In this document: one piece after another, positions 706-20,670 of the stretch | Position numbering within the stretch: position 1 is the stretch's first letter | How the letters are laid out: each line of letters begins with the position of its first letter | Notes under the pieces: model-generated | Told to the model about the DNA's origin: nothing | Seen by the model: the letters and a program-made list of their open reading frames with translations, nothing else | The model's database searches: none | Program-made: the position numbers and the translations under genes | Origin: Candidatus Falkowbacteria bacterium | Lineage (GTDB): Bacteria; Patescibacteriota; Patescibacteriia; Patescibacteriales; UBA12465 | Reading direction: 5' to 3' | Length of the DNA: 64,000 bases | Assembly: GCA_037134915.1 (NCBI GenBank) | Contig: JBAXLJ010000001.1 | Span: 229,484 to 293,483, forward strand

Positions 706-775
706 CCATTCCAATTATGCCCCCCCTCTCCGCAGATTGACAGGAGTATACTAATATAGTATGCTTTTTTGTTGA
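706..775 (+). repeat. tRNA-Ser 3'-end-like cassette-boundary repeat R1
   Basis: ATTCCAATTATGCCCCCCCTCTCCGCAG + ATTGACA-N17-TATGCT / hairpin + TTTTTTGTTGA. Confidence 0.8.
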
Positions 776-883
776 TCAGAACTTTAAAAAATAGGATTAT
801 ATTTGGTTAATTGCCAAGTTCATCTGAAAAAGGTGTATTTAGTAATTAATCAAATTAGTAATAAACCTTAAAAATAAAAAGCC
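776..883 (+). promoter_or_regulatory. Conserved structured cassette leader, copy L2
   Basis: Outer stem 802-814/842-854 and inner stem 821-825/831-835; abuts R1 and ends at ATG 884. Confidence 0.7.
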
Positions 884-1453
884 ATGAGAATTATATCAAA
901 TGCCGAATTGCAGCAATTAGCTATGGTGATTAGTAAAAATGACATATCAGTTAGTCAGGTATTGGAGCTGATTAAAAAAAGAAATAAAGTGATTGACGTA
1001 ACTTCAATCGACATTGAATTAATTGTCGATTATAGCAAAAGTGTCGAGCAAGCTATTTCTGAAGGGAATTATGATATTAAAGAGAGTGATATTAACGCTA
1101 ATAATTTCCCCGTTGATCCGGAATTAATAGGAAAGACCGTAAAAGTAAAATCAAGATTATTTAATTTTGATGAACCACTCATTTCGCAGCGCGTTATCCG
1201 AGAGATGGACCAAGTCGATTACCGCCCCGCTAATTTAATGGAAATTCTTGCTTTTGGTGCAGCCCGTCCCGAGCTTCAAAGAGTAATTACAATTATAGCT
1301 TTTGGGTCACGTTGGGAAGACCATGATGGTTATTACTGTTTACCCGCTTTGCATGTTTGTAATAATAAGCGCTATCTAAATACAGCCCTTTTTGCCGAAA
1401 TGTTTACGTCTAGCTTATTCGCTCTTGGTATTCCCAAAGAATCGCCTAAGTAA
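884..1453 (+). CDS. Hypothetical protein (cassette gene)
   Basis: Intact 189-aa ORF directly after leader L2; no motif recognised. Confidence 0.5.
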   Translation: MRIISNAELQQLAMVISKNDISVSQVLELIKKRNKVIDVTSIDIELIVDYSKSVEQAISEGNYDIKESDINANNFPVDPELIGKTVKVKSRLFNFDEPLISQRVIREMDQVDYRPANLMEILAFGAARPELQRVITIIAFGSRWEDHDGYYCLPALHVCNNKRYLNTALFAEMFTSSLFALGIPKESPK

Positions 1454-1490
1454 TTAATTTTTTTTATTATTTTAATCTTTATATATAAAA

Positions 1491-2030
1491 ATGGAAACAA
1501 ATAGTGAAAAAAAATGGACGGAAAAAGATGGTATTATATATTTTTCTGTTACTTCCAATGGCGCTACTGGCGGCCAATGGACTAATGATTTAAAAATAAA
1601 AGGAGTTAGAGTAACCAATGACGCCAAAGAGATCCTGCATTCTGAAAATTTTAAGCCTACTAATGGTTATGTTTACAATATAGCTGTTATAAAGGGTGGA
1701 ATTTTCAGTGATAATTATCGCTTTATCGAAAGAATTCGCCAAGAAGCTCTACGTCACAAATTTTTTAATTCTGACGCAGAAGTAGCGTGTCTTATTAGAG
1801 AAAAATTTTTAAACGAAGACTTGGAGGCGATGGGGTTGCTTTGGATAATAGTAATGCATGAACCAATAAAAATTTCTTCTGATTATAATTTTCCTTCTTC
1901 TTGTCGCGGCAACCTTCTTTGTTCTTCTCATGGCGACCTTGGTCCATTATTGGAAACAGCCACTGATAAATCATTTATTAAGTGGAACAGTCTTCATGGA
2001 TTTGCTTTCTTGGTTTCGAAAACTTTATAA
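1491..2030 (+). CDS. Hypothetical protein (second gene of the same cassette)
   Basis: 179-aa ORF 37 nt after the previous stop with no repeat between them; followed by hairpin AGGGAG..CTCCCT + T-run and R2. Confidence 0.5.
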   Translation: METNSEKKWTEKDGIIYFSVTSNGATGGQWTNDLKIKGVRVTNDAKEILHSENFKPTNGYVYNIAVIKGGIFSDNYRFIERIRQEALRHKFFNSDAEVACLIREKFLNEDLEAMGLLWIIVMHEPIKISSDYNFPSSCRGNLLCSSHGDLGPLLETATDKSFIKWNSLHGFAFLVSKTL

Positions 2031-2119
2031 AAAAAATGACTCAGGGTTTATGATCTTAAAAATATTCGTGTAAAAGTATAGGGAGCTAGTAATAGTCTCC
2101 CTTTTATTTATATAAAACC

Positions 2120-2182
2120 GTTCCAACTTAAGTCCCGCTCTCCCCGCAGATTTAAATAGCCCAATTTTGTGGCTATTTTTTG
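2120..2182 (+). repeat. tRNA-Ser 3'-end-like cassette-boundary repeat R2
   Basis: GTTCCAACTTAAGTCCCGCTCTCCCCGCAG followed by hairpin ATAGCC..GGCTAT + T-run. Confidence 0.75.
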
Positions 2183-2223
2183 ATGGAGAGTTTATCGCTT
2201 TAGAGTGGCGTGCTATAATTTAA

Positions 2224-2493
2224 AATATCAATACCAATAAGATAAGTGAAATTCCTGATAATTTTTATAGGACCAGTATTAAAGCAATTATTTTCGATAA
2301 CAAACATTGACTATTATTTATTCAGGAGAATAATGGCTTGTGGGAGATGCCTGGAGGTGGTTTGGATTATGGCGAAACGCCGCAGGATTGTTTGGCTAGA
2401 GAAATCAAAGAGGAAATGGGGTCGGAAGCAATATATGTAAGCCGGCAGCCATTATACTTTGCTTCGGCTCTAAATATTGATGGCCGCTTTTAA
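2224..2493 (+). pseudogene. Nudix hydrolase remnant (no start codon, in-frame TGA at 2308-2310, C-terminally short)
   Basis: The frame of 2251 reads EIPDNFYRTSIKAIIFDNKH*LLFIQENNGLWEMPGGGLDYGETPQDCLAREIKEEMG. This holds a full Nudix box GX5EX7REUXEEXG. The ORF-track ORF 2246..2440 is a different frame of the same DNA. Confidence 0.75.
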
Positions 2494-2507
2494 TAATTTA
2501 TAATAAT

Positions 2508-2825
2508 ATGAAAAATTCAACCTTAGTTAAATGGGGCGCCACTCACGCTCTTGGGGTGTTGGCTTACATCTTTCTCTTGGCCACCTTTTTTAGTAAAGCC
2601 AACGATTTTTTTGGCAAAGCTGATCACAGCATAGTTAGTCCTATGGCCGCTTTAATGCTCTTTGTCTTTTCGTCTTTAGTAACTGGTGGACTAGTTTTAG
2701 GAAAACCAATTATGCTCTATCTGGATGGTCAAAAAAAAGAAGGAGTAAAATTATTATTTTTTACCGGCGCCAGTATATTCATTTTTATGCTTCTAACTTT
2801 TACAGTTTTATTATTACTAAAATAA
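2508..2825 (+). CDS. Small integral membrane protein (about 3 TM), hypothetical
   Basis: Hydrophobic segments throughout; hairpin AAGACTTC..GAAGTCTT + T-run follows. Confidence 0.55.
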   Translation: MKNSTLVKWGATHALGVLAYIFLLATFFSKANDFFGKADHSIVSPMAALMLFVFSSLVTGGLVLGKPIMLYLDGQKKEGVKLLFFTGASIFIFMLLTFTVLLLLK

Positions 2826-2897
2826 AAGGCCAGAATCATCTAAAAGACTTCGAAAAAGAAGTCTTTTTTGTTTATGTTAGTTTGGGTGTTGACATAA

Positions 2898-2944
2898 TTG
2901 TTAGAATAATATAACATATAGTATATGTTAATTAATTCTAACAA
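2898..2944. promoter_or_regulatory. 47-bp nested palindrome (candidate operator) overlapping a TTGACA promoter
   Basis: TTGTTAGAAT(2898-2907)/ATTCTAACAA(2935-2944) plus the perfect inner palindrome TAACATATA-G-TATATGTTA (2912-2930). Both are centred on 2921. TTGACA lies at 2889-2894. Confidence 0.6.
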
Positions 2945-3494
2945 ATTTATGACTCTAAAAAATTATCAAAAAATTAAACTCGTTTTTGTTTTTTTTCTGG
3001 CACTTATTTTTAGCCAGACAATCTATTACAAGAATTACCTTATTCCCATCGCGCTTATGATTGTTAGTTCCTTGATTCTGATGTGGCTTCGCCGTCGTGT
3101 TAAGGGGGTGGTGGCTGACGAAAGGGATTATGCAACCGGAGGCAAATCAGCTCTTTTAACTATTCAGGTCTATGCTTGGATAGCCTCAATTTCTATGTTT
3201 ATCCTTTATGCTTTGCGTGATGCAAATCCTAGTTACGAACCGATTGCGATGACGCTCGCTTTTTCAACCTGTATTTTAATGCTTCTATATGCGGTTATTT
3301 TTAGATATTTTGATAATTTTAAATTTTCTGATAAAAAAACCATTTATTCCTTTTTGATTTTTATTCTTTTCTTAGTCTTAGCTGTTTTCTCTATTCGTTT
3401 ATTCTCGGGTGAGGATAATTGGGTGTGTCGAAATGGCGCTTGGCAAAAACATGGGCAACCTTCATTCCCAGCGCCCAGCACTGAATGTAAATAA
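2925..3494 (+). CDS. Multi-pass membrane protein, partner of the downstream XRE regulator (DUF2178-like arrangement). True start may be ATG 2949.
   Basis: 4-5 hydrophobic helices; stop lies 2 nt before the HTH gene. ATG 2925 lies inside the palindrome. Confidence 0.55.
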
Positions 3495-3496
3495 TT

Positions 3497-3688
3497 ATGA
3501 AAAATAACATCCGCGAACTCAGGACCAGTTTAAATTTAACTCAAGAAGAGTTGGCTCAGAAAGCCGGAGTCAGAAGAGAAACTATTGTCTTTCTGGAACA
3601 GGGTAAATATAACCCCTCCTTAAATTTAGCTTACGAAGTTTCTAAAGCCCTCAAGTCTTCAATTGATGAAGTATTTATTTTTGAATAA
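3497..3688 (+). CDS. XRE-family helix-turn-helix transcriptional regulator (63 aa)
   Basis: [39 protein letters not shown] is a classic Cro/CI HTH. Confidence 0.85.
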
Positions 3689-3747
3689 ACTCTCCCTTTA
3701 AAATTTATTAAAATAAAAACGCCCAGTTTTTAAACCGGGCGTGTTTT

Positions 3748-4434
3748 TTATTTTTGGGGAGCGATTAGACCTACGACTGAATGCTTATCCGGATAAATTT
3801 TAAATCCCGGGCGACTAATCCAGAGACCGCCGATAAATTCCGGCGCTTCTTGTGAAGCAGAACAAAAAAATACCAAGCGATAAGTCATCCGCCAATAAGA
3901 CGCTCCAATAGAAGCTAGCGGCATGTGAAATTTCTGTAAATAGGTGGTTTCTTCGTGGATGGACTTGATGATTGAACCTCTGGTGGCAAAGCCTTTATGA
4001 TTGCTGAAGATTCTCCATTCAGGATACCAAATTTTAGTTAAGTTTTTATCATTTTTTATACAAAACGGCTGACTGAAATCAAGTAATGTCTCGTAGTCGT
4101 TGGCACGGACTCTTCGCCATAGGCCAAGCTTTTCTCCAAGAGGGTAATCGATTTTAAAGTTAGAGTCTCTTGACAGTTCAATTTTATTTTTTAACCAGTG
4201 TTTTTCTGCACCCAAGAGTGAGCCAGCTAAATCAAAAATTATTTCCGCCGATTTTAAACCATTACCATAACTAATTAAATTTAACTGTCCATTAGGGGCG
4301 CAGTCAATTTCGGCCAAAAAATTTTGCTTTTTTTCTGGTTGCAGATTGATTAACAATTCCTTAGCCTGATTTTCATAAGACCTGTCCAACTCTAATATTT
4401 CATTAGAGTTTTTAAATAGATTTTTCTTTTCCAT
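3748..4434 (-). CDS. Hypothetical protein
   Basis: Intact 228-aa ORF; no motif recognised. Confidence 0.45.
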   Translation of the reverse strand: MEKKNLFKNSNEILELDRSYENQAKELLINLQPEKKQNFLAEIDCAPNGQLNLISYGNGLKSAEIIFDLAGSLLGAEKHWLKNKIELSRDSNFKIDYPLGEKLGLWRRVRANDYETLLDFSQPFCIKNDKNLTKIWYPEWRIFSNHKGFATRGSIIKSIHEETTYLQKFHMPLASIGASYWRMTYRLVFFCSASQEAPEFIGGLWISRPGFKIYPDKHSVVGLIAPQK

Positions 4435-4729
4435 GACACCTAATTTTTAAAATTAAACATTAAACGCTATTTGATGATAAAGTTGTTAAAAAACAAAAAA
4501 TCGGATAATATTCCGATTTGAATTGATTGATAATTTGCTGGCCGCCTTTTAGCGGGCTTCTTTTTTATCAACAAAACCAAACCGGATATTCATCCAGCAA
4601 TTCATATTATTATTTTGGTTGATTTTGTTCGATAATTTAAACATGGGATTATTTTAGCACATTTTAAGTAAAAGACAAGACCTTTTAATTATTATATCCC
4701 CCAAGAAACTTGTGTTATAATATAAAAAT

Positions 4730-5401
4730 ATGGAAAAAAATGTGAAAATTGAACCAGAATGGGCGGCGGTTTTAAGCGAAGTTTTTAAAACCGAACAGTT
4801 TAAACAGCTGGCTGATTTTGTTCGGGGTGAGTATTTAAGTAATAAAATTTTTCCCAAACCGGAACATGTTTTTACTGCCTTTTGGCTTACCCCATTTTCT
4901 AAAGTTAAGGTGGTTATTTTAGGTCAGGATCCTTATCATGGTGATGGTCAAGCTCACGGTTTATGTTTTTCTGTGCCTAGTGGCCTGCCGGTGCCGCCAT
5001 CTTTAAAAAATATTTATAAAGAAATTGAAAGTGATTTAGGCATAAATAAAGATTTTAAATCGGGTAATTTAGAAGCTTGGGCTAGTCAAGGAGTTTTTCT
5101 TTTAAATGCCATCTTAACAGTTGTTGCCCATAATCCCGCTTCCCATCAGAATAAGGGTTGGGAAAAATTTACCGATGCAGTTATTAAAACCATCTCGGAT
5201 AAAAAGGAGCACGTAGTTTTTATTTTATGGGGCAATTATGCTCGCAGTAAGAAAAATTTAATTGATGGCCATAAGCATTTGATTTTAGAAGCGCCGCACC
5301 CCTCGCCTTTATCGGCTTACTCAGGATTTTTTGGCTGCCGTCATTTTTCTAAAAGCAACGATTATTTAGCGGCTTGCGGCCAGGAAAAAATCGCTTGGTA
5401 G
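4730..5401 (+). CDS. ung: Uracil-DNA glycosylase, family 1
   Basis: GQDPYH water-activating loop and HPSPLS motif; length 223 aa. Confidence 0.93.
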   Translation: MEKNVKIEPEWAAVLSEVFKTEQFKQLADFVRGEYLSNKIFPKPEHVFTAFWLTPFSKVKVVILGQDPYHGDGQAHGLCFSVPSGLPVPPSLKNIYKEIESDLGINKDFKSGNLEAWASQGVFLLNAILTVVAHNPASHQNKGWEKFTDAVIKTISDKKEHVVFILWGNYARSKKNLIDGHKHLILEAPHPSPLSAYSGFFGCRHFSKSNDYLAACGQEKIAW

Positions 5402-5460
5402 AAATGCTTTATCTAAAGTAATTTGTTATACTGAAAGTAATAATAATTTATCTTTTGTTT

Positions 5461-6432
5461 ATGAACAAAAAAATAGAAGTTTCTCTTAGTCCACAAACCA
5501 TCAGAACGATTCTTTTAGTAGCGTTGGGAATTTTTTTTATCTGGAAATTATCGGACATTTTTATTCTACTAATTACCGCCATCATGGTGGCCTCCGCTTT
5601 AGATCCGGCAGTTAAATGGTTAAACAAAAAGCTATCTTTGACTTTATCGGCCGCTTTAGTAGTTATCGGCCTTATTCTGCCTTTAATTTATGTCGTGGGC
5701 GCGGTGATCCCTGATTTTATCAGCCAATTTCCGGCCATCTCTGAAAGAATCACTGGCACTTTAAGTGCTGCTAGTTTCTTACCGCCATTTTTGCGTCAAT
5801 TAGATTTTTCTCAATATTTTCAAAATGGCAGTTCTTATATTTTAGAATCAACTAAAATGATTGGTGATTTCTTTTTTCAAGCCATCACTTTTATTTTTTT
5901 AGTTTTTTATTTACTAATCGACGGCAAAGATTTGCACCGTTTAGTCGCTTTATCAATCTCTAGCGGTAAACGTAAACAAGTAGAAAAAATATCAGCCGAA
6001 CTCGGCCGAATTAGTGGTCAATATATTAGAGGCAACTTACTGATTTCCTTAATTTGTACTTTAGTAACTCTTGCCGGTTTACTACTTTTAAATATTCCTT
6101 ATGCTTTACCTCTGGCTATTTTTGCTGGAGTCTTGGATTTGTTACCGCTTATTGGGAGTACCATCGGCGCTATTCCGGCAGTCATTCTTGGTTTTACAAT
6201 TTCGCCACTGACCGGGTTGCTGACTATTGTTTTGTTTGGCACTTATCAGGCGATTGAAAACGATATCTTGGCGCCTAATATTTATAATAAGGTTTTAAAC
6301 TTATTACCATTCCTAAGTTTTATCGCCGTTATTGTCGGTTCAATTATTTTTGGTGTCGCCGGCGCTTTCTTGGCTTTGCCGATTGCCGCTGGTATCCCGA
6401 CAATTATTAAATACTTTGAAAAAAGTAAATAA
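5461..6432 (+). CDS. AI-2E/PerM (UPF0118) family transporter
   Basis: Topology of about 8 TM; C-terminal LDLLPLIGSTIGAIPA / FLALPIAA pattern typical of the family. ATG at 5461. Confidence 0.75.
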   Translation: MNKKIEVSLSPQTIRTILLVALGIFFIWKLSDIFILLITAIMVASALDPAVKWLNKKLSLTLSAALVVIGLILPLIYVVGAVIPDFISQFPAISERITGTLSAASFLPPFLRQLDFSQYFQNGSSYILESTKMIGDFFFQAITFIFLVFYLLIDGKDLHRLVALSISSGKRKQVEKISAELGRISGQYIRGNLLISLICTLVTLAGLLLLNIPYALPLAIFAGVLDLLPLIGSTIGAIPAVILGFTISPLTGLLTIVLFGTYQAIENDILAPNIYNKVLNLLPFLSFIAVIVGSIIFGVAGAFLALPIAAGIPTIIKYFEKSK

Positions 6433-6442
6433 TTAATTCTCT

Positions 6443-9400
6443 CTATTTATTATTTCCAGTCCTCTTTAATTTATTCCAGCCGTAGTGCCGGCCTTTTATG
6501 ATAGCTAAAATTGATTTATAGGTGATTACATACATAAACTGACGATAGAAAAATCTCTGAATCAGAATTAACCACATTAATTTTTTAGGTTTTTTCTCTA
6601 GGGTAAAAGCCAAGAGGGAGCCGCAGATATCCATGACGGTAAACATAAGATAACCGACGAAGATGGCACCGAAGTCACCACGAATAATTGATAGCAAAAA
6701 GACTAAATCGCCGATAGGGGATAAGACGGGGAAGATGATTTGGAAAAATAGCATATTAGGCAGAGCGACCCAGCCTAAGTTACCTTTAAAGAATAATTTA
6801 CGATTTTTATATAGACATTGATAAGTGCCATAACTCCAACGGAAGCGTTGTTTGGCTAGGCCACTAATAGTTTCCGGGGCTTCCGTTCGGCTTCTGGCTT
6901 CAGGGGCGTAAACAATCACGCCGCCGTTAGCTAGCAGTCTTAAAGTTAAGTCAGCGTCTTCAGTTAAAGTATCGGTGCCGTAACCGCCTACTGCTAAAAC
7001 TTTATCACGTCGCCAAGCGCCGGTCGCACCCGGAACTACACTAATGCAATTAAGTTCATCAAAAGCTCGGCGATCAAAATTTTGGGTGGTAATATATTCC
7101 AAGGCCTGGAAACCGGTGATTAAATTACGCACATTACCCACCTCTACATTACCGCAAACGGCATCAACTTTGGCATCGGCAAAAGGTTTAGTCAGTTCGT
7201 TGATGGTTTCTGGTAAAAGAATGGTATCACCATCAATTGTGATAATTAAATCATATTTTGCTTCCGTAAAACCTAAGTTTAAAGCTGATGATTTACCGCC
7301 ATTAGGTTTTTTAATTAATCTAATGCGCTCATCTTGCTTCATGAATTTTTCAACTTCAGCGCTAGTGTTGTCAGTTGAGCCATCGTCAATGACTAAAATC
7401 TCTAAGTTTTTCTTGGTACTTTTTTGAAGGGCGACTAAAGTGTAGGCAACGGTTTTTTCTTCGTTATAACAAGGAACGATAACGGTGACTGGTTCAGTAA
7501 AATCTTTTTCTTGACGCTTGCGGTAGTGCTTAGCCGATCTAATTACCATCGCACCTAGAAATAAGATCCGCAAGATGGCAATAACAGTTGTTAAAATAAA
7601 TAACCACGAAATAATTATCCAGCCCCAACGCAAACTGAAATTCCAAATAGAAGTTATTTCCACAAAAAATAATTCACCTCCAGAAAGTGGGGGGTTGATT
7701 TGGTCCCGACTTAAACCGGCAGCGGTATCAAAATTTACAAAAGTATAACCTTCAGCTTTTAATTTAGGAATTAGAATTTTTAGAGCAGCCACGGTTTGGG
7801 AGCGGTCTCCGCCGGCATCGTGCATTACAATGACGTGGTTTTGGGAGTCAGATACTTGATCTAAAACGTTACTGATAATTTTATCGACGCCTGGTTTTTG
7901 CCAATCTTCAGAGTCAATATTAGCACCGGCAATTATATAACCAAGCTTATTAACCGAAGAGATGGCTTTTAGCTGCTCGGGGGTACTTGGAGTTGAGTCG
8001 GTGTCGTAAGGCGGTCTAAAAAGAATGGTTCGTTTATTAGTTTCCGATTCAATTACTCTTTGGGTTTGGTTTAACTCTAAATCTAAACGACCGCGGGAGA
8101 TAGTGGAAATGTCGGGATGCAGATACGTGTGATTACCAAACATAAATCCGTCTTTAGCCATTTGACTAACCACATTAGGATTTCTTTGAGCCTGATCACC
8201 GACTAAGAAGAAGGTGGCTGGAATATTATTATCTTTTAAAACTTTGGTAATTTGCGGCGTCCAAATTTCATCAGGGCCATCATCAAAAGTTAAAATTATT
8301 TGTTTGTCAGGAAAAACTTGACCGACAGCGCCTAAATCGTAACCCGCGGGAATCTTATCGTAGAGAGCGTAATCAATACTGCCGTCGGAATCAGTGGTAA
8401 TTTGGAGGTGACCATTGGCTCGATCACGTTCTAATTTAAATAATTCACTTTGATTTTCAAAAGTAATGGAATTTAACTTGGGGGAATCGGTAAAACTTTG
8501 ACCAGTGGCCTGTTTGTTAAATACCTGCCAATAGGATTCATCTTCATTGCCTAAACGCCACAGGGCAACGCCGGCTACCTGACTTTTTTTGGCAATTAAA
8601 ACTTCATTCCAGGCTGTAGTCCCGTTTAAAAACCAAACTTGGTGTTCGTTGTCGCTGTCATCTTTGTAGCTAAAGTACATATTAAAACCGGAATCAGAAT
8701 TCATTTCTGGTTCGGCTCCCGCTTCACTGGCCAAAGACATGACTTCGTTAAATTTTAAAGATTCGGCTGACGTAGTGGTGCCAATAGTCCAGTCATAACC
8801 GTAAGCTCCTAGAGAAATAATTAGTTTACTTTTGGGTACTGAGTTAATGCCTTGATCAACCACATCTTTGAACCAGTCAGTACTGGCAATCGGCCCGGGG
8901 TCACCGCCAGGGTAGTGCTCGTCATAAGCCATGAGCACGACGTAATCAACTATTTGTCCGATATACTCAAAGTCGTAAGCCGGATCGTTAGCGGTCACAT
9001 CAACGGTTACAAGTTTATTATTTTTATGCAGGATTTCGGTTAGAGTTTTAAGAAATTCCAGATAAGCGTCTCTATCTTCAGGTTTTAAATCTTCTAAGTC
9101 GACATTAATGCCGGCCGCCTTTGACTTTATAACTAAGTCAGCTAAGGCTCCGGCTAAGCAAGAGCTAGTTTCGGAGTTGTGCAAAATAATGCTAGTTTCG
9201 GGACCATACCAGCGGCCTAAATAACCATTAGTAAATCGGGGAATAATCGCCGCCTTGCTAGATGAGCTGATAGCCTTGGTAATATTTGAATCTTCTTTTT
9301 CTAAAACGGAACAACTGGCACTATTTAAAAAATACCAATCAGGAAAAACAATATCCGTGTCGCTAGCGTGTCTTTCAAATGATTGCAGACTAGACGGATC

Positions 9401-9730
9401 GTCTTGAATTAAAAAAGCACTTGATAAGAAGTTAGTTGAACTGGCTAGATTTTGATTATTAATAACAGTCAGCGGAGTCGAAGTGGCCAAATTAGTCTTA
9501 GTTACCTTTTTTGTTTTTGGGGCTAATTTTTTTTCCTGAGCAATAATATTAGCTTTAATGTGTGAGGCTCTTTTGATATTATCTTGCCTTTCTTGAACAC
9601 TAGCTAGGGGCGGATTAACCATTAAACTGGCAATCATACCTCCTAAAAGGATGGCTAGGATGAGGGGAATGCCAATGAAGACCCATTTGGCTCTTTTCCA
9701 ACGTTTTTGTGAGAAATCTTCGAATATCAT
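6443..9730 (-). CDS. Triple-fusion exopolysaccharide enzyme: TM - GH18-like domain - NodB polysaccharide deacetylase - TM - family-2 processive glycosyltransferase (PgaC/IcaA/MatB-like)
   Basis: GINVDLEDL (GH18 DxxDxDxE-like); TFDDGP and HTYLHPD (NodB); VIVPCYNEE, DDGSTDNT, DGDT and QRFRWSYG (GT2 Q(R/Q)xRW). Confidence 0.85.
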   Translation of the reverse strand: MIFEDFSQKRWKRAKWVFIGIPLILAILLGGMIASLMVNPPLASVQERQDNIKRASHIKANIIAQEKKLAPKTKKVTKTNLATSTPLTVINNQNLASSTNFLSSAFLIQDDPSSLQSFERHASDTDIVFPDWYFLNSASCSVLEKEDSNITKAISSSSKAAIIPRFTNGYLGRWYGPETSIILHNSETSSCLAGALADLVIKSKAAGINVDLEDLKPEDRDAYLEFLKTLTEILHKNNKLVTVDVTANDPAYDFEYIGQIVDYVVLMAYDEHYPGGDPGPIASTDWFKDVVDQGINSVPKSKLIISLGAYGYDWTIGTTTSAESLKFNEVMSLASEAGAEPEMNSDSGFNMYFSYKDDSDNEHQVWFLNGTTAWNEVLIAKKSQVAGVALWRLGNEDESYWQVFNKQATGQSFTDSPKLNSITFENQSELFKLERDRANGHLQITTDSDGSIDYALYDKIPAGYDLGAVGQVFPDKQIILTFDDGPDEIWTPQITKVLKDNNIPATFFLVGDQAQRNPNVVSQMAKDGFMFGNHTYLHPDISTISRGRLDLELNQTQRVIESETNKRTILFRPPYDTDSTPSTPEQLKAISSVNKLGYIIAGANIDSEDWQKPGVDKIISNVLDQVSDSQNHVIVMHDAGGDRSQTVAALKILIPKLKAEGYTFVNFDTAAGLSRDQINPPLSGGELFFVEITSIWNFSLRWGWIIISWLFILTTVIAILRILFLGAMVIRSAKHYRKRQEKDFTEPVTVIVPCYNEEKTVAYTLVALQKSTKKNLEILVIDDGSTDNTSAEVEKFMKQDERIRLIKKPNGGKSSALNLGFTEAKYDLIITIDGDTILLPETINELTKPFADAKVDAVCGNVEVGNVRNLITGFQALEYITTQNFDRRAFDELNCISVVPGATGAWRRDKVLAVGGYGTDTLTEDADLTLRLLANGGVIVYAPEARSRTEAPETISGLAKQRFRWSYGTYQCLYKNRKLFFKGNLGWVALPNMLFFQIIFPVLSPIGDLVFLLSIIRGDFGAIFVGYLMFTVMDICGSLLAFTLEKKPKKLMWLILIQRFFYRQFMYVITYKSILAIIKGRHYGWNKLKRTGNNK

Positions 9731-9890
9731 AAGAGTTTAATTGATTAAATTAGCTTACATTATTATATATTATATATAGGGGGTAGCTAAAAAGCAATAT
9801 GAAATTAAAAATCTTTTTAAACAAAAAAAGCCTCTTTATTCGCCAAAAGGCGGAGAGACTTTTTATAATACTTAGTATTTTTTGTTATTT

Positions 9891-10415
9891 TTAGGCGTGA
9901 CCTAAAGTTTTTTCGCCTTCCTGCCAGTCTAAAGGGCATAAATCGCCGCTTTGAATAGCTTTTAAGACGCGTAGGGTTTCAGTGACAGAACGTCCAACTG
10001 AACCAGTCGACACGACAATATATTTGATCAGACCTTCGGGGTCAATAATAAATAAACCTCTTTCGGCTGAACCATCGTTTTCATTAAGAACTCCATAAGC
10101 TTTAGCTAAAGCTTGGGTCGTGTCAGCGAGGACGGGATATTTTATTTCCGGCAGATCTTTTTCTAACCAATTCTTGTGTGACCACTCTGAATCGGTGGAA
10201 GCGGCCAAAATTTCACAATTTAAATCTTTAAAATCAGCTTCATGTTTAGCAAATCCTCGGAGCTCCGTCGGGCAGACGAAAGTAAAGTCGCGAGGGTAAA
10301 AAAAGAGCACTAGCCATTTTCCGGAATAATCCGCTAAGCTGAGGTCTTTGAATTCGCCTTGATGATAGGATTTTATTTTAGTAAAATCTGGGGCCTTGGT
10401 ATTAGTGTTTAACAT
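9891..10415 (-). CDS. Peroxiredoxin (AhpC/Prx1 type)
   Basis: FTFVCPTE peroxidatic Cys motif; C-terminal resolving Cys (DLCPLDW). Confidence 0.9.
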   Translation of the reverse strand: MLNTNTKAPDFTKIKSYHQGEFKDLSLADYSGKWLVLFFYPRDFTFVCPTELRGFAKHEADFKDLNCEILAASTDSEWSHKNWLEKDLPEIKYPVLADTTQALAKAYGVLNENDGSAERGLFIIDPEGLIKYIVVSTGSVGRSVTETLRVLKAIQSGDLCPLDWQEGEKTLGHA

Positions 10416-10427
10416 ATCGTTAGGGGT

Positions 10428-10841
10428 TTATAAATAATAGATGATATCAGTTTTTTTAATTTTCTGGCCCATTATTTTAGTGGGTAATTTCAGTTTTTGG
10501 TTTCCTCCTAAATCATAGACTTTGCCTTGTTTCGTATCAACGACATGGCAATGAGTTTCTAACTTAGCGTCATAGCGATTAGGAGCTCCTGCGAGGGGGA
10601 TTTCGATTATCAAACCGAGTTTCTGAAATTGAATCAGATTTTTATAGACAGTAGCCAGGGAAATATTTGTAAATTTGTTTTTCACTTGTTCGTAAATATC
10701 CTGAGCTTGGGGATGACTGCAAGAAGAAGCGACAATTCGGAAGATTTCTAGCTTCTGTGGCGTTAAGGGTAGACCCTGATTACGAACAGCTTGCCGAAAA
10801 TTATCTAAGCGCTGGGTTATTTCTTGCTGACTGATAGTCAT
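10428..10841 (-). CDS. Fur-family transcriptional regulator (PerR-like by context)
   Basis: Winged-helix region ...SLATVYKNL... and a His/Cys cluster ETHCHVVD. Lies 12 nt upstream of the peroxiredoxin on the same strand. Lacks C-terminal CxxC pairs. Confidence 0.7.
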   Translation of the reverse strand: MTISQQEITQRLDNFRQAVRNQGLPLTPQKLEIFRIVASSCSHPQAQDIYEQVKNKFTNISLATVYKNLIQFQKLGLIIEIPLAGAPNRYDAKLETHCHVVDTKQGKVYDLGGNQKLKLPTKIMGQKIKKTDIIYYL

Positions 10842-13623: not shown

Positions 13624-13710
13624 GGAGAGGTGCCAGAGCGGTCGAATGGAACAGTCTTGAAAACTGTCGTACCTGAAAGGGTACCGAGGGTTCGAATCCC
13701 TCCCTCTCCG
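13624..13710 (+). tRNA. tRNA-Ser (anticodon UGA), CCA not encoded
   Basis: Acceptor GGAGAGG/CCTCTCC; anticodon stem ACAGT/ACTGT with loop CTTGAAA; long variable arm; T-arm GAGGG-TTCGAAT-CCCTC. Confidence 0.92.
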
Positions 13711-13721
13711 CAATCACATTG

Positions 13722-14284: not shown

Positions 14285-14328
14285 TACAGTGTAAAAATAG
14301 TGTTTAATTGGTATTTTCGCAAATTCCA

Positions 14329-14394
14329 GTTCGAACAAAGTCCCTCACTCCCCGCAGACAGGAAAAAGCAGCTTTAATTAGCTGTTTTTTTGTT
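14329..14394 (+). repeat. tRNA-Ser 3'-end-like cassette-boundary repeat R4
   Basis: GTTCGAACAAAGTCCCTCACTCCCCGCAG followed by hairpin AGCAGC..GCTGT + TTTTTTTGTT. Confidence 0.8.
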
Positions 14395-15272: not shown

Positions 15273-15388
15273 AATTTAGTTTTATAGCTTTATTATAAAA
15301 ACGTTTCAACTATCTGTCTTGCCTTCAAGCATTTTTAATAAAAACCAAACTACATATTTAGCTAATCATACAAATAATTTATCAAATT

Positions 15389-15456
15389 AGTTCGAATAGC
15401 GTCCCTAACACCCCGCCAATTGACAAAAGTATACCAAGATGGTATGCTTTTTTGTT
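15389..15456 (+). repeat. tRNA-Ser 3'-end-like cassette-boundary repeat R5
   Basis: GTTCGAATAGCGTCCCTAACACCCCGCC; TTGACA(15420-15425)-N17-TATGCT; hairpin AGTATACCA/TGGTATGCT; TTTTTTGTT. Confidence 0.85.
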
Positions 15457-15760: not shown

Positions 15761-15821
15761 AAAAACTATTAATTAGGGGGGGGGTGTTCAGTAATGAACA
15801 CCTTTTTTATTTGTTAAAACC

Positions 15822-15887
15822 GTTCTAACTACGTCCCACTCTTTCCGCACATTGACAAAAGTATACTAATGTGGTATACTTCTTGTT
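15822..15887 (+). repeat. tRNA-Ser 3'-end-like cassette-boundary repeat R6
   Basis: GTTCTAACTACGTCCCACTCTTTCCGCAC; ATTGACA-N17-TATACT; ..CTTGTT. Confidence 0.85.
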
Positions 15888-15927: not shown

Positions 15928-16131
15928 ATGATTCAAACAGTTCTTCTTTCGTTTTTGTATGGTGCGGTTGTATTTGGGGCCACTGCTTTATTCCTAGGAA
16001 AGAAAAAAGCTAGTAAATTACCTGGTGGTGCTATTTTAGCAGCCTTTATTTTAGCTCCATGGTGGGCTGCTTTAATTGGCGCTTTAGTAGGGCACTTTGG
16101 CGCTGCTTATTTAGTTAATAAATTTCTTTAA
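15928..16131 (+). CDS. Small 2-TM membrane protein (cassette gene)
   Basis: 67 aa with two Gly/Ala-rich hydrophobic helices. Confidence 0.45.
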   Translation: MIQTVLLSFLYGAVVFGATALFLGKKKASKLPGGAILAAFILAPWWAALIGALVGHFGAAYLVNKFL

Positions 16132-16209
16132 TTGAACCTTGGTTCATAAAAGGAGGTCTTAAAAATAGATCTCCTTTTTTCTTTTTAATTAACACTTTTA
16201 TATATCACT

Positions 16210-16280
16210 GTTCCAGTTACACCCCCCTCCCTCTCCGCTTATTGACAAAAGTATGCCAAGATGGTATGCTTTTTTGTTGA
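16210..16280 (+). repeat. tRNA-Ser 3'-end-like cassette-boundary repeat R7 (best match to the tRNA)
   Basis: GTTCCAGTTACACCCCCCTCCCTCTCCGCT (tRNA: ATCCCTCCCTCTCCGCA); ATTGACA-N17-TATGCT; TTTTTTGTTGA. Confidence 0.88.
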
Positions 16281-16389
16281 TCAGAACTTTAAAAAATAAG
16301 GTTAAATTTGGTTAATTGCCGAGTTCGTCTCAAATTTAGGCGGGTTTAGTAATTAATCAAATTAGTAATAACTTCAAAAATAAAATGTC
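16281..16389 (+). promoter_or_regulatory. Conserved structured cassette leader, copy L3
   Basis: Outer stem 16307-16319/16349-16361 and inner stem 16326-16330/16338-16342; ends at ATG 16390. Confidence 0.7.
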
Positions 16390-16821
16390 ATGAAAAAAAT
16401 GCTTGTTTTATTATTCTGTTTATTGATTTCTTTCGGTATTAAGGCTCAGACACCAGCCAAAGGGGAAATTCAAAAAATTTACAAAAAAGTTGTCACAAAA
16501 ATTTCATCTGAAGGCCGGGATACCGTAGAATTCAGGGTATTTCGTGTGGACACTTTTTCTGTAACCAATTTAGTTTACGAAAAAAAGCATGATTGTCCAT
16601 GTAGCAACAAGCAATGTCACGGCTCAAGGCTTACCCTATCTGCTAATTTTGGGAAAACAAAGATTTTTATTTTTCCTAATGGTGATTGTTTCTCTGAAAC
16701 AAATCATTCCAGTCCTGGTGTTGAAATTGTAGAAGTTAACCTAAAAGAAGAAAAAAAGTACGAGGCCAAATTTAAAAATGAGGCCAAAGTAGTTTTGTTA
16801 AACTATCTAAAATATTATTGA
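16390..16821 (+). CDS. Secreted hypothetical protein (cassette gene)
   Basis: N-terminal signal peptide MKKMLVLLFCLLISFGIKA|Q; no other motif. Confidence 0.5.
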   Translation: MKKMLVLLFCLLISFGIKAQTPAKGEIQKIYKKVVTKISSEGRDTVEFRVFRVDTFSVTNLVYEKKHDCPCSNKQCHGSRLTLSANFGKTKIFIFPNGDCFSETNHSSPGVEIVEVNLKEEKKYEAKFKNEAKVVLLNYLKYY

Positions 16822-16894
16822 TAGCCAAAATTTTGCAAGGAAGTCTAGCAATAGTCTTCCTTTTTTCTTTTTAAAGATCATTTTTATTACTAAC

Positions 16895-16965
16895 TGTTTT
16901 CCCAATATAGCGCCGATCTCCACGCCGATTGACAAAATTATACTAATATGTTATATTTTTTGTTG
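16895..16965 (+). repeat. tRNA-Ser 3'-end-like cassette-boundary repeat R8
   Basis: GTTTTCCCAATATAGCGCCGATCTCCACGCCG; ATTGACA-N17-TATATT; TTTTTGTT. Confidence 0.75.
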
Positions 16966-17029
16966 TCAAGAATATATTCTAGATTTTGCACTAAAATAAT
17001 AAAATTATTAATAAATTTAGTTTTAATAT

Positions 17030-17758
17030 ATGTTACCCCTAAGTAGGCAAAAAATTATTACAGAAGCTACAAATATTTTAGCTGATATTTTTAAGAAATA
17101 TCATGACCGTGGTATTGAAGCAATATATTTATGGGGGTCAGTTTTGTCTTCTAAGGATTTTAATCAAATATCTAGCGACATCGATTCCATTGCCATTGTA
17201 AAGGATAGTCTCGATTTTGCGGTAGAAAAAGAGTTAAATGACTATATTAAAATACAAAATAAAGGAATTGATCTGAAAATAAGATTTCTTTATATTAGTG
17301 AATTAAATGGCGGTCCGTCAAAAGGATTCACCACAAAGTATATTAATTATAAAATATTGTTATTTGATTTAAAATTTTGGCACCATGTTGTTGGTCAAAA
17401 GTATAGTGAAAAAGATTTCTCTTTAAAAAAAATAACAAATAATGAAGTTGCTATATTAAAACTTAAGGAAATTAGTAAATTGCACTTGCCGGCAAGGACT
17501 TATCCGTATACTGATTATAAATATTTTCTTAAAGCTTTGGCTAGATTTTGTTATTTCATCCAGGGGGCTAGTTGTACTTTCTCATATAACGATACTCTAA
17601 ATAGTGCCGATAAGGAATGTCAGTTTATTATGAAAAAAATAATAAAAATAAAAGAAAATGATTGGGATTTAAAAATGTTCACAAAAGAATTGCCTATATT
17701 TATAAACTTCTTAAACAAGAAAGAATTTGAACTCACATGTCGTAACGATGTTTTATGA
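17030..17758 (+). CDS. Minimal nucleotidyltransferase-fold protein (ANT/MNT-like) (cassette gene)
   Basis: hG[GS]x9-13DhD signature: LWGSVLSSKDFNQISSDIDSIAIV. Size of 242 aa is similar to aminoglycoside adenylyltransferases; substrate unknown. Confidence 0.55.
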   Translation: MLPLSRQKIITEATNILADIFKKYHDRGIEAIYLWGSVLSSKDFNQISSDIDSIAIVKDSLDFAVEKELNDYIKIQNKGIDLKIRFLYISELNGGPSKGFTTKYINYKILLFDLKFWHHVVGQKYSEKDFSLKKITNNEVAILKLKEISKLHLPARTYPYTDYKYFLKALARFCYFIQGASCTFSYNDTLNSADKECQFIMKKIIKIKENDWDLKMFTKELPIFINFLNKKEFELTCRNDVL

Positions 17759-17881
17759 AACACGTTATTTGTAACCATTAATTATATTTACCGCTTGTTT
17801 CATATTAAGATGATAAAATATCTGATGTTTCGTTTTTAAGATAAACGTGTCTCAACGCCATTTAGATAATTAAAATTTTTA

Positions 17882-17944
17882 TTTCAAATACATCCCGCCC
17901 TCCCCGAATTAAGACAAAAATAAGGTTAAGCCTTATTTTTTTTA
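17882..17944 (+). repeat. tRNA-Ser 3'-end-like cassette-boundary repeat R9 (last, degenerate)
   Basis: TTTCAAATACATCCCGCCCTCCCCG followed by hairpin ATAAGG..CCTTAT + T8. Confidence 0.65.
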
Positions 17945-18016
17945 TCAAATTGATAAAAAACAGAAGTTATTATATTATGATAAGCCACTCTTATTAATAA
18001 AATTATACTTAATTAT

Positions 18017-18559
18017 ATGATTATAGTTCCCATTGAAATATCTTCTAGACATGTTCACTTAAGCCAAGAAGATTTAGATGTCTTGTTTGATTTAGATTAT
18101 AAGTTAGCGCCGCTAAAAAATATTTCACAAACTGGCCAATATGCGGCGCAAGAAACAGTGACGCTTAAAAACGGTAATAGTGAAATAAAGAATGTGAGAA
18201 TTATCGGCCCCGTTCGCCAGTCTACAGTTGTGGAATTAGCGGCTTCTGATTCTAGAAAATTGGGCCTTAAATTAGCGGTTAATAATTCAGTCACGATTAT
18301 TGGCCCTAATAATTCTCTTACTAGAGACTGTGCTGTTATCCCGCAAAGGCATATCCACGCTTCTAACGAGGATGCTAAAAAATATAAACTCCATGACAAG
18401 CAAATTGTTTCAGTTGAATGTGGACAAAAAAGAAAGGTTATTTTTGCCAACGTTATTGTTCGTGTCGACCAAGACTTTGTTTGGAACTTTCACGTCGACA
18501 TCGACGAGGCTAATGCCGCTGGTTTAGCAGAGAACGAGTTTGGCACAGTCATCGTTTAA
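18017..18559 (+). CDS. pduL: PduL-type phosphate acyltransferase (phosphotransacylase)
   Basis: Duplicated SxRHVHLS / RHIHAS motifs and C-terminal HVDIDEANAAG, as in PduL. Confidence 0.85.
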   Translation: MIIVPIEISSRHVHLSQEDLDVLFDLDYKLAPLKNISQTGQYAAQETVTLKNGNSEIKNVRIIGPVRQSTVVELAASDSRKLGLKLAVNNSVTIIGPNNSLTRDCAVIPQRHIHASNEDAKKYKLHDKQIVSVECGQKRKVIFANVIVRVDQDFVWNFHVDIDEANAAGLAENEFGTVIV

Positions 18560-18602
18560 TCTAAGTATCTCGCTTCAAAATGATATGTTATAATTTAAGT
18601 AT

Positions 18603-19184
18603 ATGAAAAAAATCTCTATTTATATCGCCGGTAGCGTTAAAAAAGATGCTGGTGACGGTAATGCTATTTTTGCCTCTGACGATATTAAAAGCGAACTCAC
18701 TAAAGATATCGACAACTTTGAGGTGGTAATTTTTGATCCCAATGAGAGTAAGATTTTTGGTAACGGAAAAAGCAATCGATTCGGTCAGGATTGTTTGCAA
18801 GTAACTTCCAGTAACTTTTTGGTTATTGATTTGAGGGAAAAAAGAGGTTTAGGTGTCGGCGCGGAAATGATGCTCGCTAAAGAAAAGGGAATTCCGGTAA
18901 TTTCAGTCTGTCCAACCGGTAGTCATTATAAAAGAAGCATGGTTTTTCACAGTGGTGTTGAAAATCCGAATTGGGTCCACCCTTTTGTGGAGTCACTAAG
19001 TGACGCTGTGGTAGAAGATTTTGGTCAGGCGGGGCAGTGGATCAAAGCATTTATTCAAAACCCTATTAAAATAAAATCCAGCTCCATTGTTGAGGAGTCA
19101 GTTAAAGATTATTTGGATAACTTTCTAGATAATGATTTGGATTTTAAGAAAAAATATTTAGATTCACTAGTGGATAAAATATAA
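18603..19184 (+). CDS. Hypothetical; nucleoside 2-deoxyribosyltransferase-like Rossmann pattern
   Basis: KISIYIAGS near the N-terminus and D..RGLGVGAEMMLAKEKGIPVI resemble the NDT-like superfamily; weak. Confidence 0.35.
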   Translation: MKKISIYIAGSVKKDAGDGNAIFASDDIKSELTKDIDNFEVVIFDPNESKIFGNGKSNRFGQDCLQVTSSNFLVIDLREKRGLGVGAEMMLAKEKGIPVISVCPTGSHYKRSMVFHSGVENPNWVHPFVESLSDAVVEDFGQAGQWIKAFIQNPIKIKSSSIVEESVKDYLDNFLDNDLDFKKKYLDSLVDKI

Positions 19185-19188
19185 AAAT

Positions 19189-19548
19189 ATGACAAAGCAA
19201 TTTTACAAAGATGCTTTTGGTTGGGGTTTTATTCTTTGGTTAATTGGTTATCTGCTTGGTATATTATTGTTTTTTGTGGCGCCACCTTCGGCGATTGGGT
19301 GGATTATTATGCCAATTGGTTTGGTTATTACTCTTTGGGTGCTGCTTAAAAAAATAAAACCGGAATCATTTAAAAATTATATTGCACTGGCGTTTATTTG
19401 GGCGCTAACGGCTATTATTTGTGATTATTTATTCTTGGTTTTAGTATTTAAACCCAGTGGTGGTTATTATAAGCTGGATGTCTATATCTATTATTTTTTA
19501 ACTTTTATCTTGCCGTTTATTATTGGTTTTAAAAAGAAAAATATATGA
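19189..19548 (+). CDS. Integral membrane protein, hypothetical
   Basis: Four hydrophobic helices in 119 aa. Confidence 0.5.
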   Translation: MTKQFYKDAFGWGFILWLIGYLLGILLFFVAPPSAIGWIIMPIGLVITLWVLLKKIKPESFKNYIALAFIWALTAIICDYLFLVLVFKPSGGYYKLDVYIYYFLTFILPFIIGFKKKNI

Positions 19549-20081
19549 TAATCAAAAATATAGTCCAAATTGGCAATCCTATTTTAAGTCGTAAGTCGGA
19601 GCTAGTTAAGGATATAAAATCTAAAGAAACTAAAAAAGTAATCAAAAATTTAACTGACTCGGTTCGCTATCACGGACTAATCGGCATGGCCGCTTCACAG
19701 ATTGGTGAAAAATTAAGAATCTTTGTGACCGAGGTTAGAAGTACTAAATATCGAGAGCTTAAGACCGATAAGCTAAGAGTTTATATTAATCCCAAAATTA
19801 TTTGGTCGTCAAAAAGAAAAGTAATAATCTACGAAGGTTGTGGTAGCGTGGCTTATGCCAAATTATTCGCTCCGGTTAGCCGACCGGAAAAAATAATGAT
19901 TGAGGCTTTAGACGAAAATGGTCAGACATTTACACTTAAAGCTGATGGCATGCTAAGCCGCGTCATTTTGCATGAATATGATCATTTAGATGGCATTGAA
20001 TTTACGGAAAAAATCACTGATATGCGCAAGATTATGAGTTCAGAGGAGTATCAAAAGTGGAATTTGTCTAAAAAGAGCTAA
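19545..20081 (+). CDS. def: Peptide deformylase
   Basis: GMAASQIG, EGCGS and HEYDHLDG motifs. Confidence 0.92.
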   Translation: MIIKNIVQIGNPILSRKSELVKDIKSKETKKVIKNLTDSVRYHGLIGMAASQIGEKLRIFVTEVRSTKYRELKTDKLRVYINPKIIWSSKRKVIIYEGCGSVAYAKLFAPVSRPEKIMIEALDENGQTFTLKADGMLSRVILHEYDHLDGIEFTEKITDMRKIMSSEEYQKWNLSKKS

Positions 20082-20159
20082 TTATTGACTAAAATATTTA
20101 TATATATTAGGCTTTAGATACAGTTAACTTAAGTTCCTAAACAACAAAAAAATAAAACC

Positions 20160-20660
20160 ATGAAAAAGATCGTCGCTTTATCGTTGCTTCTGTTTGGGTT
20201 TTTTATGTTTGGGTTTGCTCAGTCAGAATCTATTAAAACCCATTTCTCCAGTAAGAGTTTTTATCAGAAAAATCACACTGCCTACTACGATATGTGGGCT
20301 TGGGGCTCTGGTCTTAAAAAAGACGGCACAAAATTTATGTGGATTGCTTCTACTAATACTAATGCCACCTTTCAGATTACCTGCACGGAGCTTTTAACGA
20401 AAAACGAAATAGCCGCTATTTCTAACCAGAAAGATTTTTTAAAAAGGAATTATGAGGCTCGTAATGTGACTCGGGATAAAAAAAGCTACATTACAGCTAG
20501 TAATGATTGGTCATTTATTCAGAATAAAGAAACAGCCAATTTTATAGGTCAGCCTTATAATGAATTTAAGCCCAATAAAAAAGGAATTGTCGGGTATTAC
20601 ATTAAGATAATTTTAAACACCGGCGCTTTTAAAAGTATTGAAGTTCAGGGGTATTTATAA
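20160..20660 (+). CDS. Secreted hypothetical protein
   Basis: Signal peptide MKKIVALSLLLFGFFMFGFA|Q. Confidence 0.5.
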   Translation: MKKIVALSLLLFGFFMFGFAQSESIKTHFSSKSFYQKNHTAYYDMWAWGSGLKKDGTKFMWIASTNTNATFQITCTELLTKNEIAAISNQKDFLKRNYEARNVTRDKKSYITASNDWSFIQNKETANFIGQPYNEFKPNKKGIVGYYIKIILNTGAFKSIEVQGYL

Positions 20661-20670
20661 AAAATTTGGG

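Follow-up and report, generated by a model that had tools for sequence, protein, structure and literature searches.

Does the hairpin that recurs in front of unrelated genes in a Patescibacteria genome act in the RNA, or is it a palindrome that serves the movement of DNA? The question is raised by a 64,000-nucleotide (nt) stretch of Candidatus Falkowbacteria bacterium (contig JBAXLJ010000001.1, positions 229,484 to 293,483 of the forward strand; hereafter the window, whose own numbering is used throughout), in which a leader of about 105 nt at 776–883 shares its sequence and fold with two others. A first-pass annotation, made from the letters alone, had suggested that selection acts on the structure of this leader rather than on its sequence, and offered two explanations: an RNA element controlling stability or translation, and a folded single-stranded DNA recombination site akin to integron attC or the ends of IS200/IS605. 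Patescibacteria (the candidate phyla radiation, CPR) are uncultured, the control of their gene expression is almost unknown, and a structured leader found across several of their lineages stands out. We find that the leader has a structure kept by compensatory changes, is specific to the sense strand and has a fixed position between promoter and start codon. Its hairpin is probably the structured part of a cis-acting 5′ untranslated region (5′-UTR), which would act post-transcriptionally on the mRNA as a determinant of stability or processing.

A paired leader in the sense strand

Three copies of the leader lie on the + strand of the window, at 1–106, 776–883 and 16281–16389, with covariance-model scores of 94.8, 94.7 and 104.8 bits respectively, and a covariance-model search of the whole window with filters off returned these three only. 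The first-pass annotation had found all three, although copy 1, inside which the window starts, extends to 106 and not 97. Its hairpin occupies 17–94 (helix P2 at 25–39/68–82, helix P3 at 41–50/57–66) and is followed by an A-rich tail up to the ATG at 107; the hairpins of copies 2 and 3 lie at 793–868 and 16299–16374, ahead of ATG codons at 884 and 16390. Pairwise identity among the three is 77–85%, with an 18-nt and a 15-nt block the same in 3/3; the window contains the 17-mer CAGAACTTTAAAAAATA (which lacks the initial T of the 18-mer) exactly three times, and likewise the 13-mer TTTGGTTAATTGC, with zero mismatches. All the structural details first reported from these copies are confirmed: a conserved outer stem, inner stems that differ in sequence, double changes from A-U to G-C and from A-U to C-G, a conserved U.G wobble and loops that vary.

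Folded as RNA, the + strand reaches −22.6 to −27.7 kcal/mol, with z-scores of −6.6 for copy 1 (−27.7 kcal/mol), −4.7 for copy 2 and −5.4 for copy 3, and none of 200 shuffled sequences was as stable. On the minus strand, copies 2 and 3 do no better than shuffled sequence (z about 0), because the stems contain G.U wobbles. An intrinsic terminator on the minus strand, where a T-run follows the hairpin, was rejected on the same result.

Exact-pattern scans of GTDB genomes and JGI metagenomes, using patterns that lie in P2, supplied the first 12 copies; the many chance matches that have no 3′ arm were discarded. True homologues came from contigs of Candidatus Falkowbacteria, Parcubacteria and other Patescibacteria, and one from a 2.9-kb contig binned as Gammaproteobacteria, which is probably misbinned. 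Covariance model R1 added diverged copies on related contigs (L012b, L012c, L040b and L055b; L-numbers denote related loci or contigs), and protein searches with the three window open reading frames (ORFs) behind leaders 1, 2 and 3, termed W1, W2 and W3, gave few relatives, whose contigs carry the leader. The resulting set of 20 distinct full copies from Patescibacteria contigs is the basis of the covariation statistics. At a further three loci (L021, L050 and L054) 23 nt are held in common with the 5′ arm and the hairpin is absent.

From its base the hairpin consists of P1 (about 7 bp, AAGGUUA/UAACCUU), a short internal loop on the 3′ side, P2 (15 bp), a single further position (C.A in 13 copies, U-A in 7) and P3 (10 bp), capped by a variable loop of 4–7 nt, which is enlarged by an additional GC hairpin in L023 and by a duplication in L040b; the total helix is 26–33 bp. 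Standard pairs make up 91.7% of pair cells in the 20-copy alignment, and 11 of the 26 pairs have changed on both sides (13 pairs when P1 is included, for which 17 copies are available). Covariation scores 0.279, where shuffles average 0.171; all five measures exceed 500/500 column shuffles, and sliding the register by 1–3 columns lowers covariation about 3-fold, to 0.064–0.090. Evidence that was weak with the three window copies alone is therefore strong with 20, and bears out the proposal that selection acts on base pairing. Over all stems the sense strand has 75 G.U cells against 15 A.C (about 5:1); such an excess fits selection for pairing on the transcribed strand, and would not be expected of a palindrome in duplex DNA. 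The structure kept by covariation is what is expected of a cis-acting 5′-UTR class.

Within P2, compensations appear in copies found by model or orthology: U-A to G-C in L055a, U-A to A-U in L012c and G-C to A-U in L012b, while the core of L058 has gone from UUAAUU/AAUUAA to UUAACG/CGUUAA. The leaders of W1 orthologues form a series at a single pair (29/99), from U-A through U.G to C-G. The TTAA at the centre of the P2 stem is invariant in 20/20 copies.

The invariant centre, together with the strong conservation of the AT-rich inverted repeats TTGGTTAATTGC and GCAATTAATCAA, would also suit a transcription-factor operator of double-stranded DNA immediately past the promoter, with the P2 arms as its half-sites; relative to a strong promoter the repeats occupy about +25 to +100, and an Xre-type helix-turn-helix (HTH) gene is present in the first cassette region at 3497–3688. 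We regard such an operator as very improbable. The spacing between the arms ranges from about 26 to 45 nt, through the insertions in L023 and L040b, which is tolerable for a hairpin and not for a double-stranded operator; the arms differ systematically, the 5′ arm having G where the 3′ arm implies A, in keeping with the G.U bias; P3, between the arms, covaries too; and several P2 variants stand together on one contig, L012.

The genes downstream are of unrelated kinds. W1 (107–601, 164 aa), W2 (884–1453, 189 aa; NCBI WCK59_01190, Candidatus Falkowbacteria) and W3 (16390–16821, 143 aa, with an N-terminal signal peptide judged by eye), all on the + strand, belong to no Pfam family and are not related to one another, as had already been noted, and the 20 copies precede at least 13 unrelated gene families. 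A family represented in the window by ORF67 (15928–16131) has the hairpin leader in L058 and a hairpin-less one in the window. The earlier view that the element goes with the cassette backbone and not with a gene family thus holds in the larger set. Orthologues do keep it: the whole leader stands before the W3 orthologue in L055 (76% amino-acid identity) and the W1 orthologues in L059, L060 and L061 (80, 76 and 55%). Between W3 and L055a, identity is 77.5% in the leader, 81% in the coding sequence, 63% in the 3′ flank and 44% in the promoter region, and between L007 and L040b it is 65% in the leader and 58% in the coding sequence. In orthologous pairs the leader is conserved about as well as coding sequence and better than its flanks, a pattern of divergence that marks it as under purifying selection.

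The leader as a probable part of the messenger RNA

All 20 copies are sense-oriented and lie between a promoter that matches the consensus and a start codon, the position that defines a cis-acting 5′-UTR element. Copies 2 and 3 in the window follow sigma-70-type promoters on the + strand at 737–765 (TTGACA, 17 nt, TATGCT) and 16242–16270 (the same, with TG upstream), both consensus matches, and the predicted transcription start of cassette 2 lies a few nt before 776. In L004, L011, L012, L013, L043, L058, L059, L060 and L061 the leader likewise follows a promoter of this type, and in most copies 32–36 nt separate the −10 box from P1. The first-pass annotation placed every leader between a repeat, R (described below), and a start codon; this applies to copies 2 and 3, where R and promoter come first and the ATG follows, while the upstream side of copy 1 is beyond the window. 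Leaders measure 102–110 nt, or 124 nt where L023 has its insertion; P2 stops 24–32 nt short of the ATG, and the base of the hairpin about 12–18 nt short of the AUG. Mean unpaired probability is 0.59 in the start region against 0.18 in the hairpin, and pairing leaves both the AUG and the preceding 18 nt free. The suggestion of an RNA element that governs stability or translation is in keeping with copies in sense orientation only, a strand bias towards G.U, a near-constant length and an unpaired start region.

An open start region also bears on whether the hairpin could be a riboswitch or RNA thermometer that opens and closes the start site. A conserved, structured 5′-UTR ahead of many genes is what such a device would look like, but conservation here resides in the helices, the loops and tip vary and tolerate insertions of 12–18 nt, so that no ligand pocket is apparent, and the downstream genes have no common function. 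An alternative 5′ pairing that might have formed a switch (P0, GAACNUU with AAGGUU) was rejected, since C7 is unchanged when its partner becomes A and columns 8/20 show no covariation. Taken together, these features make a riboswitch or thermometer the most improbable of the explanations considered. A short upstream reading frame in the hairpin (TTG GTT AAT TGC ...) was likewise set aside: its frames end at different points and insertions or deletions in the loop shift them, so the leader is not coding.

A Shine-Dalgarno-like motif occurs at only 4/67 ORF starts in the window. With the genome nearly devoid of it, its absence from the leaders is uninformative as to any role related to it. A TATAAT box stands 7–10 nt before the ATG of several genes (for example those starting at 4730, 14592, 18603, 48765 and 50194), which suggests leaderless mRNAs; with several genes apparently leaderless, a long structured leader is unusual in this genome. 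The promoter has a peculiarity of its own: its spacer and the −10 region together make up a palindrome of 12 bp (AAAAGTATRCC..GGTATGCTTTT) with a T-run after it, at 15425–15451, 16247–16273 and also 742–768. Scoring accordingly picks out this DNA twice, once as a strong promoter and once as a hairpin of terminator type, and the palindrome may be an operator, or a terminator for upstream read-through.

From these features a course of events can be proposed. In Candidatus Falkowbacteria and related Patescibacteria, a promoter–leader module would sit before single accessory genes (cassettes) that gather beside tRNA genes, mostly tRNA-Ser. Transcription would start a few nt past the near-consensus promoter and, after some 20 A-rich nt, the RNA would fold into one long hairpin, downstream of which the A-rich start region, with no Shine-Dalgarno sequence, would stay open. 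The hairpin would then set the lifetime or maturation of the mRNA, the mechanism we prefer, and might do so in either of two ways: as a double-stranded RNA processing site, with a helix of RNase III substrate length, or as a roadblock to 5′-end-dependent decay that would also shield the ribosome landing zone from upstream and variable coding sequence. If the leader does act in the RNA, RNase III-type processing is a tentative suggestion, drawn from the geometry of the helix; a role as passive stabiliser or insulator is put forward just as tentatively, and specific binding of a protein appears only half as probable as either. P2 and P3 together give 25–26 bp, continuous in 7/20 copies and interrupted by the single C.A in the others, to which P1 adds about 7 bp, so that the helix reaches the length of about 20 bp or more of continuous double-stranded RNA that marks an RNase III substrate.

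Known leaders offer partial parallels. The classical 5′ stabilisers, such as the leaders of Escherichia coli ompA and Bacillus subtilis aprE and the ermC leader, lie within a few nt of the 5′ end and have 8–15 bp. They resemble the present element in being stable 5′-UTR hairpins upstream of the ribosome-binding region that are portable between genes, but differ in that the hairpin here has 26–33 bp and begins about 20 nt past the predicted 5′ end. RNase III hairpins such as the R sites of phage T7 and the lambda N leader are, like it, long and near-perfect (more than 20 bp), interrupted by a small mismatch, and lie in leader or inter-gene RNA. The transcribed Correia elements of Neisseria bind RNase III and are cleaved or protected, altering the expression of neighbouring genes (PMC2649163); like the leader they are transcribed together with downstream genes of unrelated kinds, recur within one genome and accompany promoters. 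Correia elements occur in both orientations, at TA sites and in hundreds of copies per genome, whereas the leader has one orientation, one position and few copies per genome. None of the Correia, T7 and lambda sites is similar to it in sequence, and RNase III cleavage here is proposed by analogy. Mobile or re-used promoters are also comparable, in that the same promoter and leader stand before unrelated genes within and between genomes; the difference is that the segment shared here includes pairing-constrained RNA and ends exactly at the start codon.

Several points weigh against a function in the RNA. The patterns used for the first searches lay in P2 and so inflate its apparent invariance in the first 12 copies. 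Transcription of the leader, its 5′ end and any cleavage are predictions from sequence. The roughly 20 single-stranded nt that precede the hairpin at the predicted 5′ end set it apart from a textbook 5′-terminal stabiliser, and the signature motif of rnc (RNase III) was not found in the window and related contigs, which are small parts of genomes. In L055 there are homologous leaders that have no hairpin (for example at 16027–16110) and whose two flanks are both homologous, the 5′ flank being joined straight to the 3′ flank TTATTGTTTAACTAAAAAT; and the single W2 homologue found (66% identity), in L058, retains the 3′ half of the leader only. The hairpin is therefore dispensable in some contexts, as an optional module would be. 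At L004 (5612–5716), P2 alone is inverted, as the exact reverse complement of its consensus form, and the flanks, promoter and P3 keep the + orientation; this turns both G.U positions into A.C, giving two A.C pairs, of which that at pair 32/96 recurs in L058. The inversion could equally reflect the behaviour of a palindrome in DNA.

Palindromic DNA and cassette boundaries

The hairpin might, then, be a palindromic insertion of the miniature inverted-repeat transposable element (MITE) kind, or of the Correia, ERIC or RUP type, that has spread with a common cassette leader and folds in RNA as a by-product. Presence and absence of the hairpin between homologous leaders in L055, the inverted P2 in L004 and the orphan 3′ half in L058 would all be at home in such an account, as would the A-rich TAAAAAAT-type runs on both sides of the hairpin, which resemble a target duplication, and the P2 arms, which have the form of terminal inverted repeats. 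Elements of this kind insert in either orientation at many unrelated sites with a target-site duplication; here orientation is uniform across the 20 copies, as is their location with respect to promoter and ATG, and the flanking A-runs are similar but not exact duplications. About 260 kb of related contigs contain no copy other than in a 5′-UTR, and copy number is low. The compensatory changes with their sense-strand bias, and a leader as conserved as coding sequence in orthologues down to 55% amino-acid identity, are further points against it. The hairpin-less leader, moreover, already has the 3′ strand of P1, so that the insertion or deletion lacks the symmetric ends of a MITE. An insertion element of this sort is accordingly unlikely. 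The L058 breakpoint, the hairpin-less leaders and the L004 inversion together show a palindrome that has been gained, lost and rearranged as DNA, which would leave room for a MITE-like origin. These signs of rearrangement do not outweigh the single orientation, fixed position and sense-strand pairing constraint that speak for an RNA element.

Recombination at the hairpin itself is a separate matter, and is best judged from the ends of the cassettes. The sequence termed R is a degenerate copy of the 3′ end of tRNA-Ser, from the T-loop to the acceptor end (...CCCTCCCTCTCCGCA), and is usually fused directly to the consensus promoter TTGACAAAAGTATAC..TGGTATACT. Its source in the window is the 3′ end of the tRNA-Ser(TGA) gene at 13624–13711 (+ strand), downstream of which the cassette island extends. 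The R before cassette 2 (about 694–736, + strand) is like the tRNA-Ser 3′ end (...CCCCCCCTCTCCGCAGA), abuts the promoter and forms the left end of a 1.41-kb cassette; that before cassette 3 (16199–16241, + strand) contains CCCTCCCTCTCCGC, identical to the 3′ end of the window tRNA-Ser. Another, at about 2108–2155 (+ strand), is the right end of the 1.41-kb cassette, and further copies lie at 14322–14365, 15377–15419, 15809–15851, 16886–16928 and 17880–17925. The array looks like a series of one- or two-gene cassettes of 0.4–1.4 kb, each with its own promoter and terminator, integrated at the 3′ end of a tRNA gene. Elsewhere, in L059, promoter, hairpin leader and W1 orthologue follow immediately on a genuine tRNA-Ser(TGA), and in L004, L040, L033 and L055 the leader is within about 200 nt downstream of a tRNA gene.

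Cassette ends could be mapped from one strain-level insertion or deletion, between the window and L059. Window 746–2155 aligned with L059 6496–6740 contains an extra unit of 1.41 kb, absent in L059, that comprises a promoter, leader copy 2, two ORFs and a terminator. Both of its ends are in R repeats, about 45 nt upstream of the leader, with the switch point at ...CTCCGCAGATT; cassettes thus end at R, as expected for integration at a tRNA 3′ end, and the comparison of boundaries between strains, which had been proposed as a check on the hairpin, points away from it. Integrases directed at tRNA genes usually target the 3′ end. Neither an integrase nor a transposase turned up in the 20 window ORFs scanned or in the precomputed Pfam annotations (884–10841 and 16390–28016).

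On this evidence it is very doubtful that the hairpin is a folded single-stranded DNA recombination site, like integron attC or the ends of IS200/IS605, at which genes are exchanged behind a standard promoter, and the suggestion to that effect in the first-pass annotation is not supported. Like attC, the hairpin is an imperfect palindrome that goes with single-gene cassettes and has a conserved basal part; its succession of basal stem, internal loop, conserved stem and variable tip is loosely reminiscent of that site, and the homology of leaders extends up to the ATG before unrelated genes. The differences are more numerous. Cassette ends lie in a tRNA-derived repeat outside the hairpin; the hairpin is optional and not one per cassette, being present in 3 of about 10 R-bounded cassettes in the window, most of which have R alone; the strand that folds is the coding strand; and the cassettes have their own promoters and terminators and can be divergent in orientation, as in L012. 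Boxes of the R″/R′ kind are in the reverse of attC order (RYYYAAC...GTTRRRY), with GTTAAAT on the 5′ side and (A/T)TTAAC on the 3′ side, and do not make up the basal pairing. The scanned ORFs and annotations contain no match to Phage_integrase as would be expected of an IntI/attI system, and no TnpA or TnpB gene of the IS200/IS605 kind adjoins any copy, the downstream window ORFs having no Pfam family.

A single rearrangement favours the hairpin as a site. In L058 (1430–1880) an R repeat, a promoter and a full hairpin leader precede a 71-codon membrane protein gene, the homologue of window ORF 15928–16131, and this gene is directly followed by the orphan 3′ half-hairpin, after which comes the W2 homologue; the small gene has its stop codon in the P3 remnant. 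Thus one deletion or recombination breakpoint is at the hairpin apex, and the compared loci hold one orphan half against 20 intact copies. Palindromes are known deletion hot spots, and their proneness to deletion can explain a single apex event without a dedicated recombinase. A variant on this theme has the hairpin leader as a docking or assembly site, at which new ORFs are joined behind a promoter and 5′ half-leader by recombination near the apex, whether on folded single-stranded DNA or by template switching on RNA. It would explain both leader homology that ends exactly at the ATG and the order of gene and orphan half-hairpin in L058; taking both routes together, we give it little more than a slim chance. 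If it were true, the docking site and the tRNA-end R repeats would together give these ultra-small Patescibacteria a cassette system with two sites, different from that of integrons.

The cassette array, in which each R repeat is fused to the same promoter, is a more unusual feature than the hairpin, and single-gene cassettes bounded by the tRNA-Ser 3′ end with a common promoter may matter more than it does. Partial tRNAs mark successive integrations in tycheposon islands (10.1101/2020.12.28.424599), and tRNA-targeting islands of this type resemble the array in lying beside tRNA genes, with tRNA 3′-end repeats separating the insertions. They differ in that the units here are of 0.4–1.4 kb, with one or two genes, have no integrase of their own and carry the same promoter at the tRNA-end repeat. 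Behind one R repeat, window 2246–2440 contains a short NUDIX-domain fragment (48–64 codons), probably a decayed cassette gene. At L055 15735–17014, a tRNA with a Trp-like anticodon is followed by two copies of a GC-rich non-coding unit of about 290 nt, each flanked by the 3′ end of that tRNA and then by the same promoter type and a hairpin-less leader.

Novelty of the leader and other features of the window

At the gathering threshold, Rfam models matched only the tRNA-Ser in the whole window, and a permissive scan of 600–1000 returned plant and animal miRNA-precursor models at 12–21 bits, against thresholds of 83–230, which amounts to a generic resemblance among long hairpins. Scans of viral contigs, INPHARED phages and PLSDB plasmids gave no match to the leader, and nothing specific was found in the literature on RNA motifs or cassette arrays of CPR/Patescibacteria. 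The leader is an undescribed family of a familiar and fairly ordinary kind, a structured mRNA leader hairpin, from a phylum about which little is known; it is unlikely to be a site of DNA recombination.

The value of the RNA element lies in its being concrete and testable, whether for processing, stability or translation, in front of accessory and mostly envelope proteins that are exchanged in and out of tRNA-linked islands; it would provide a new family of the Rfam type and a marker for the cassettes. Were it a site of RNase III action or decay control, mobile cassettes in these reduced genomes would carry a portable promoter with an insulated leader, in parallel with designs of synthetic biology.

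A far-diverged relative of the leader is present at L055 17590–17692 (30 bits), behind a promoter and 10 nt before an HD-domain gene. Its hairpin is equally long (−31.7 kcal/mol) with a stem sequence that is almost wholly different, and the leader family may therefore be wider, possibly much wider, than exact-pattern searches reveal.

Two features of the window lie apart from the cassettes. A segment of at least 5.5 kb occurs twice, at 45801–51320 and 58481–64000, with 99.9% identity and 12,680 nt between the copies, the second of which runs to the window end; it encodes a T2SS-F/PilC-like protein, four small pilin-like paralogues and a FemAB-family protein, and may reflect either a genuine segmental duplication or an error of assembly. 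An AbiEii-family nucleotidyltransferase toxin gene (type IV toxin–antitoxin/abortive infection) is encoded on the minus strand at 53863–54633, with the pilus cluster on one side and a gene for a 1460-aa repeat protein on the other.

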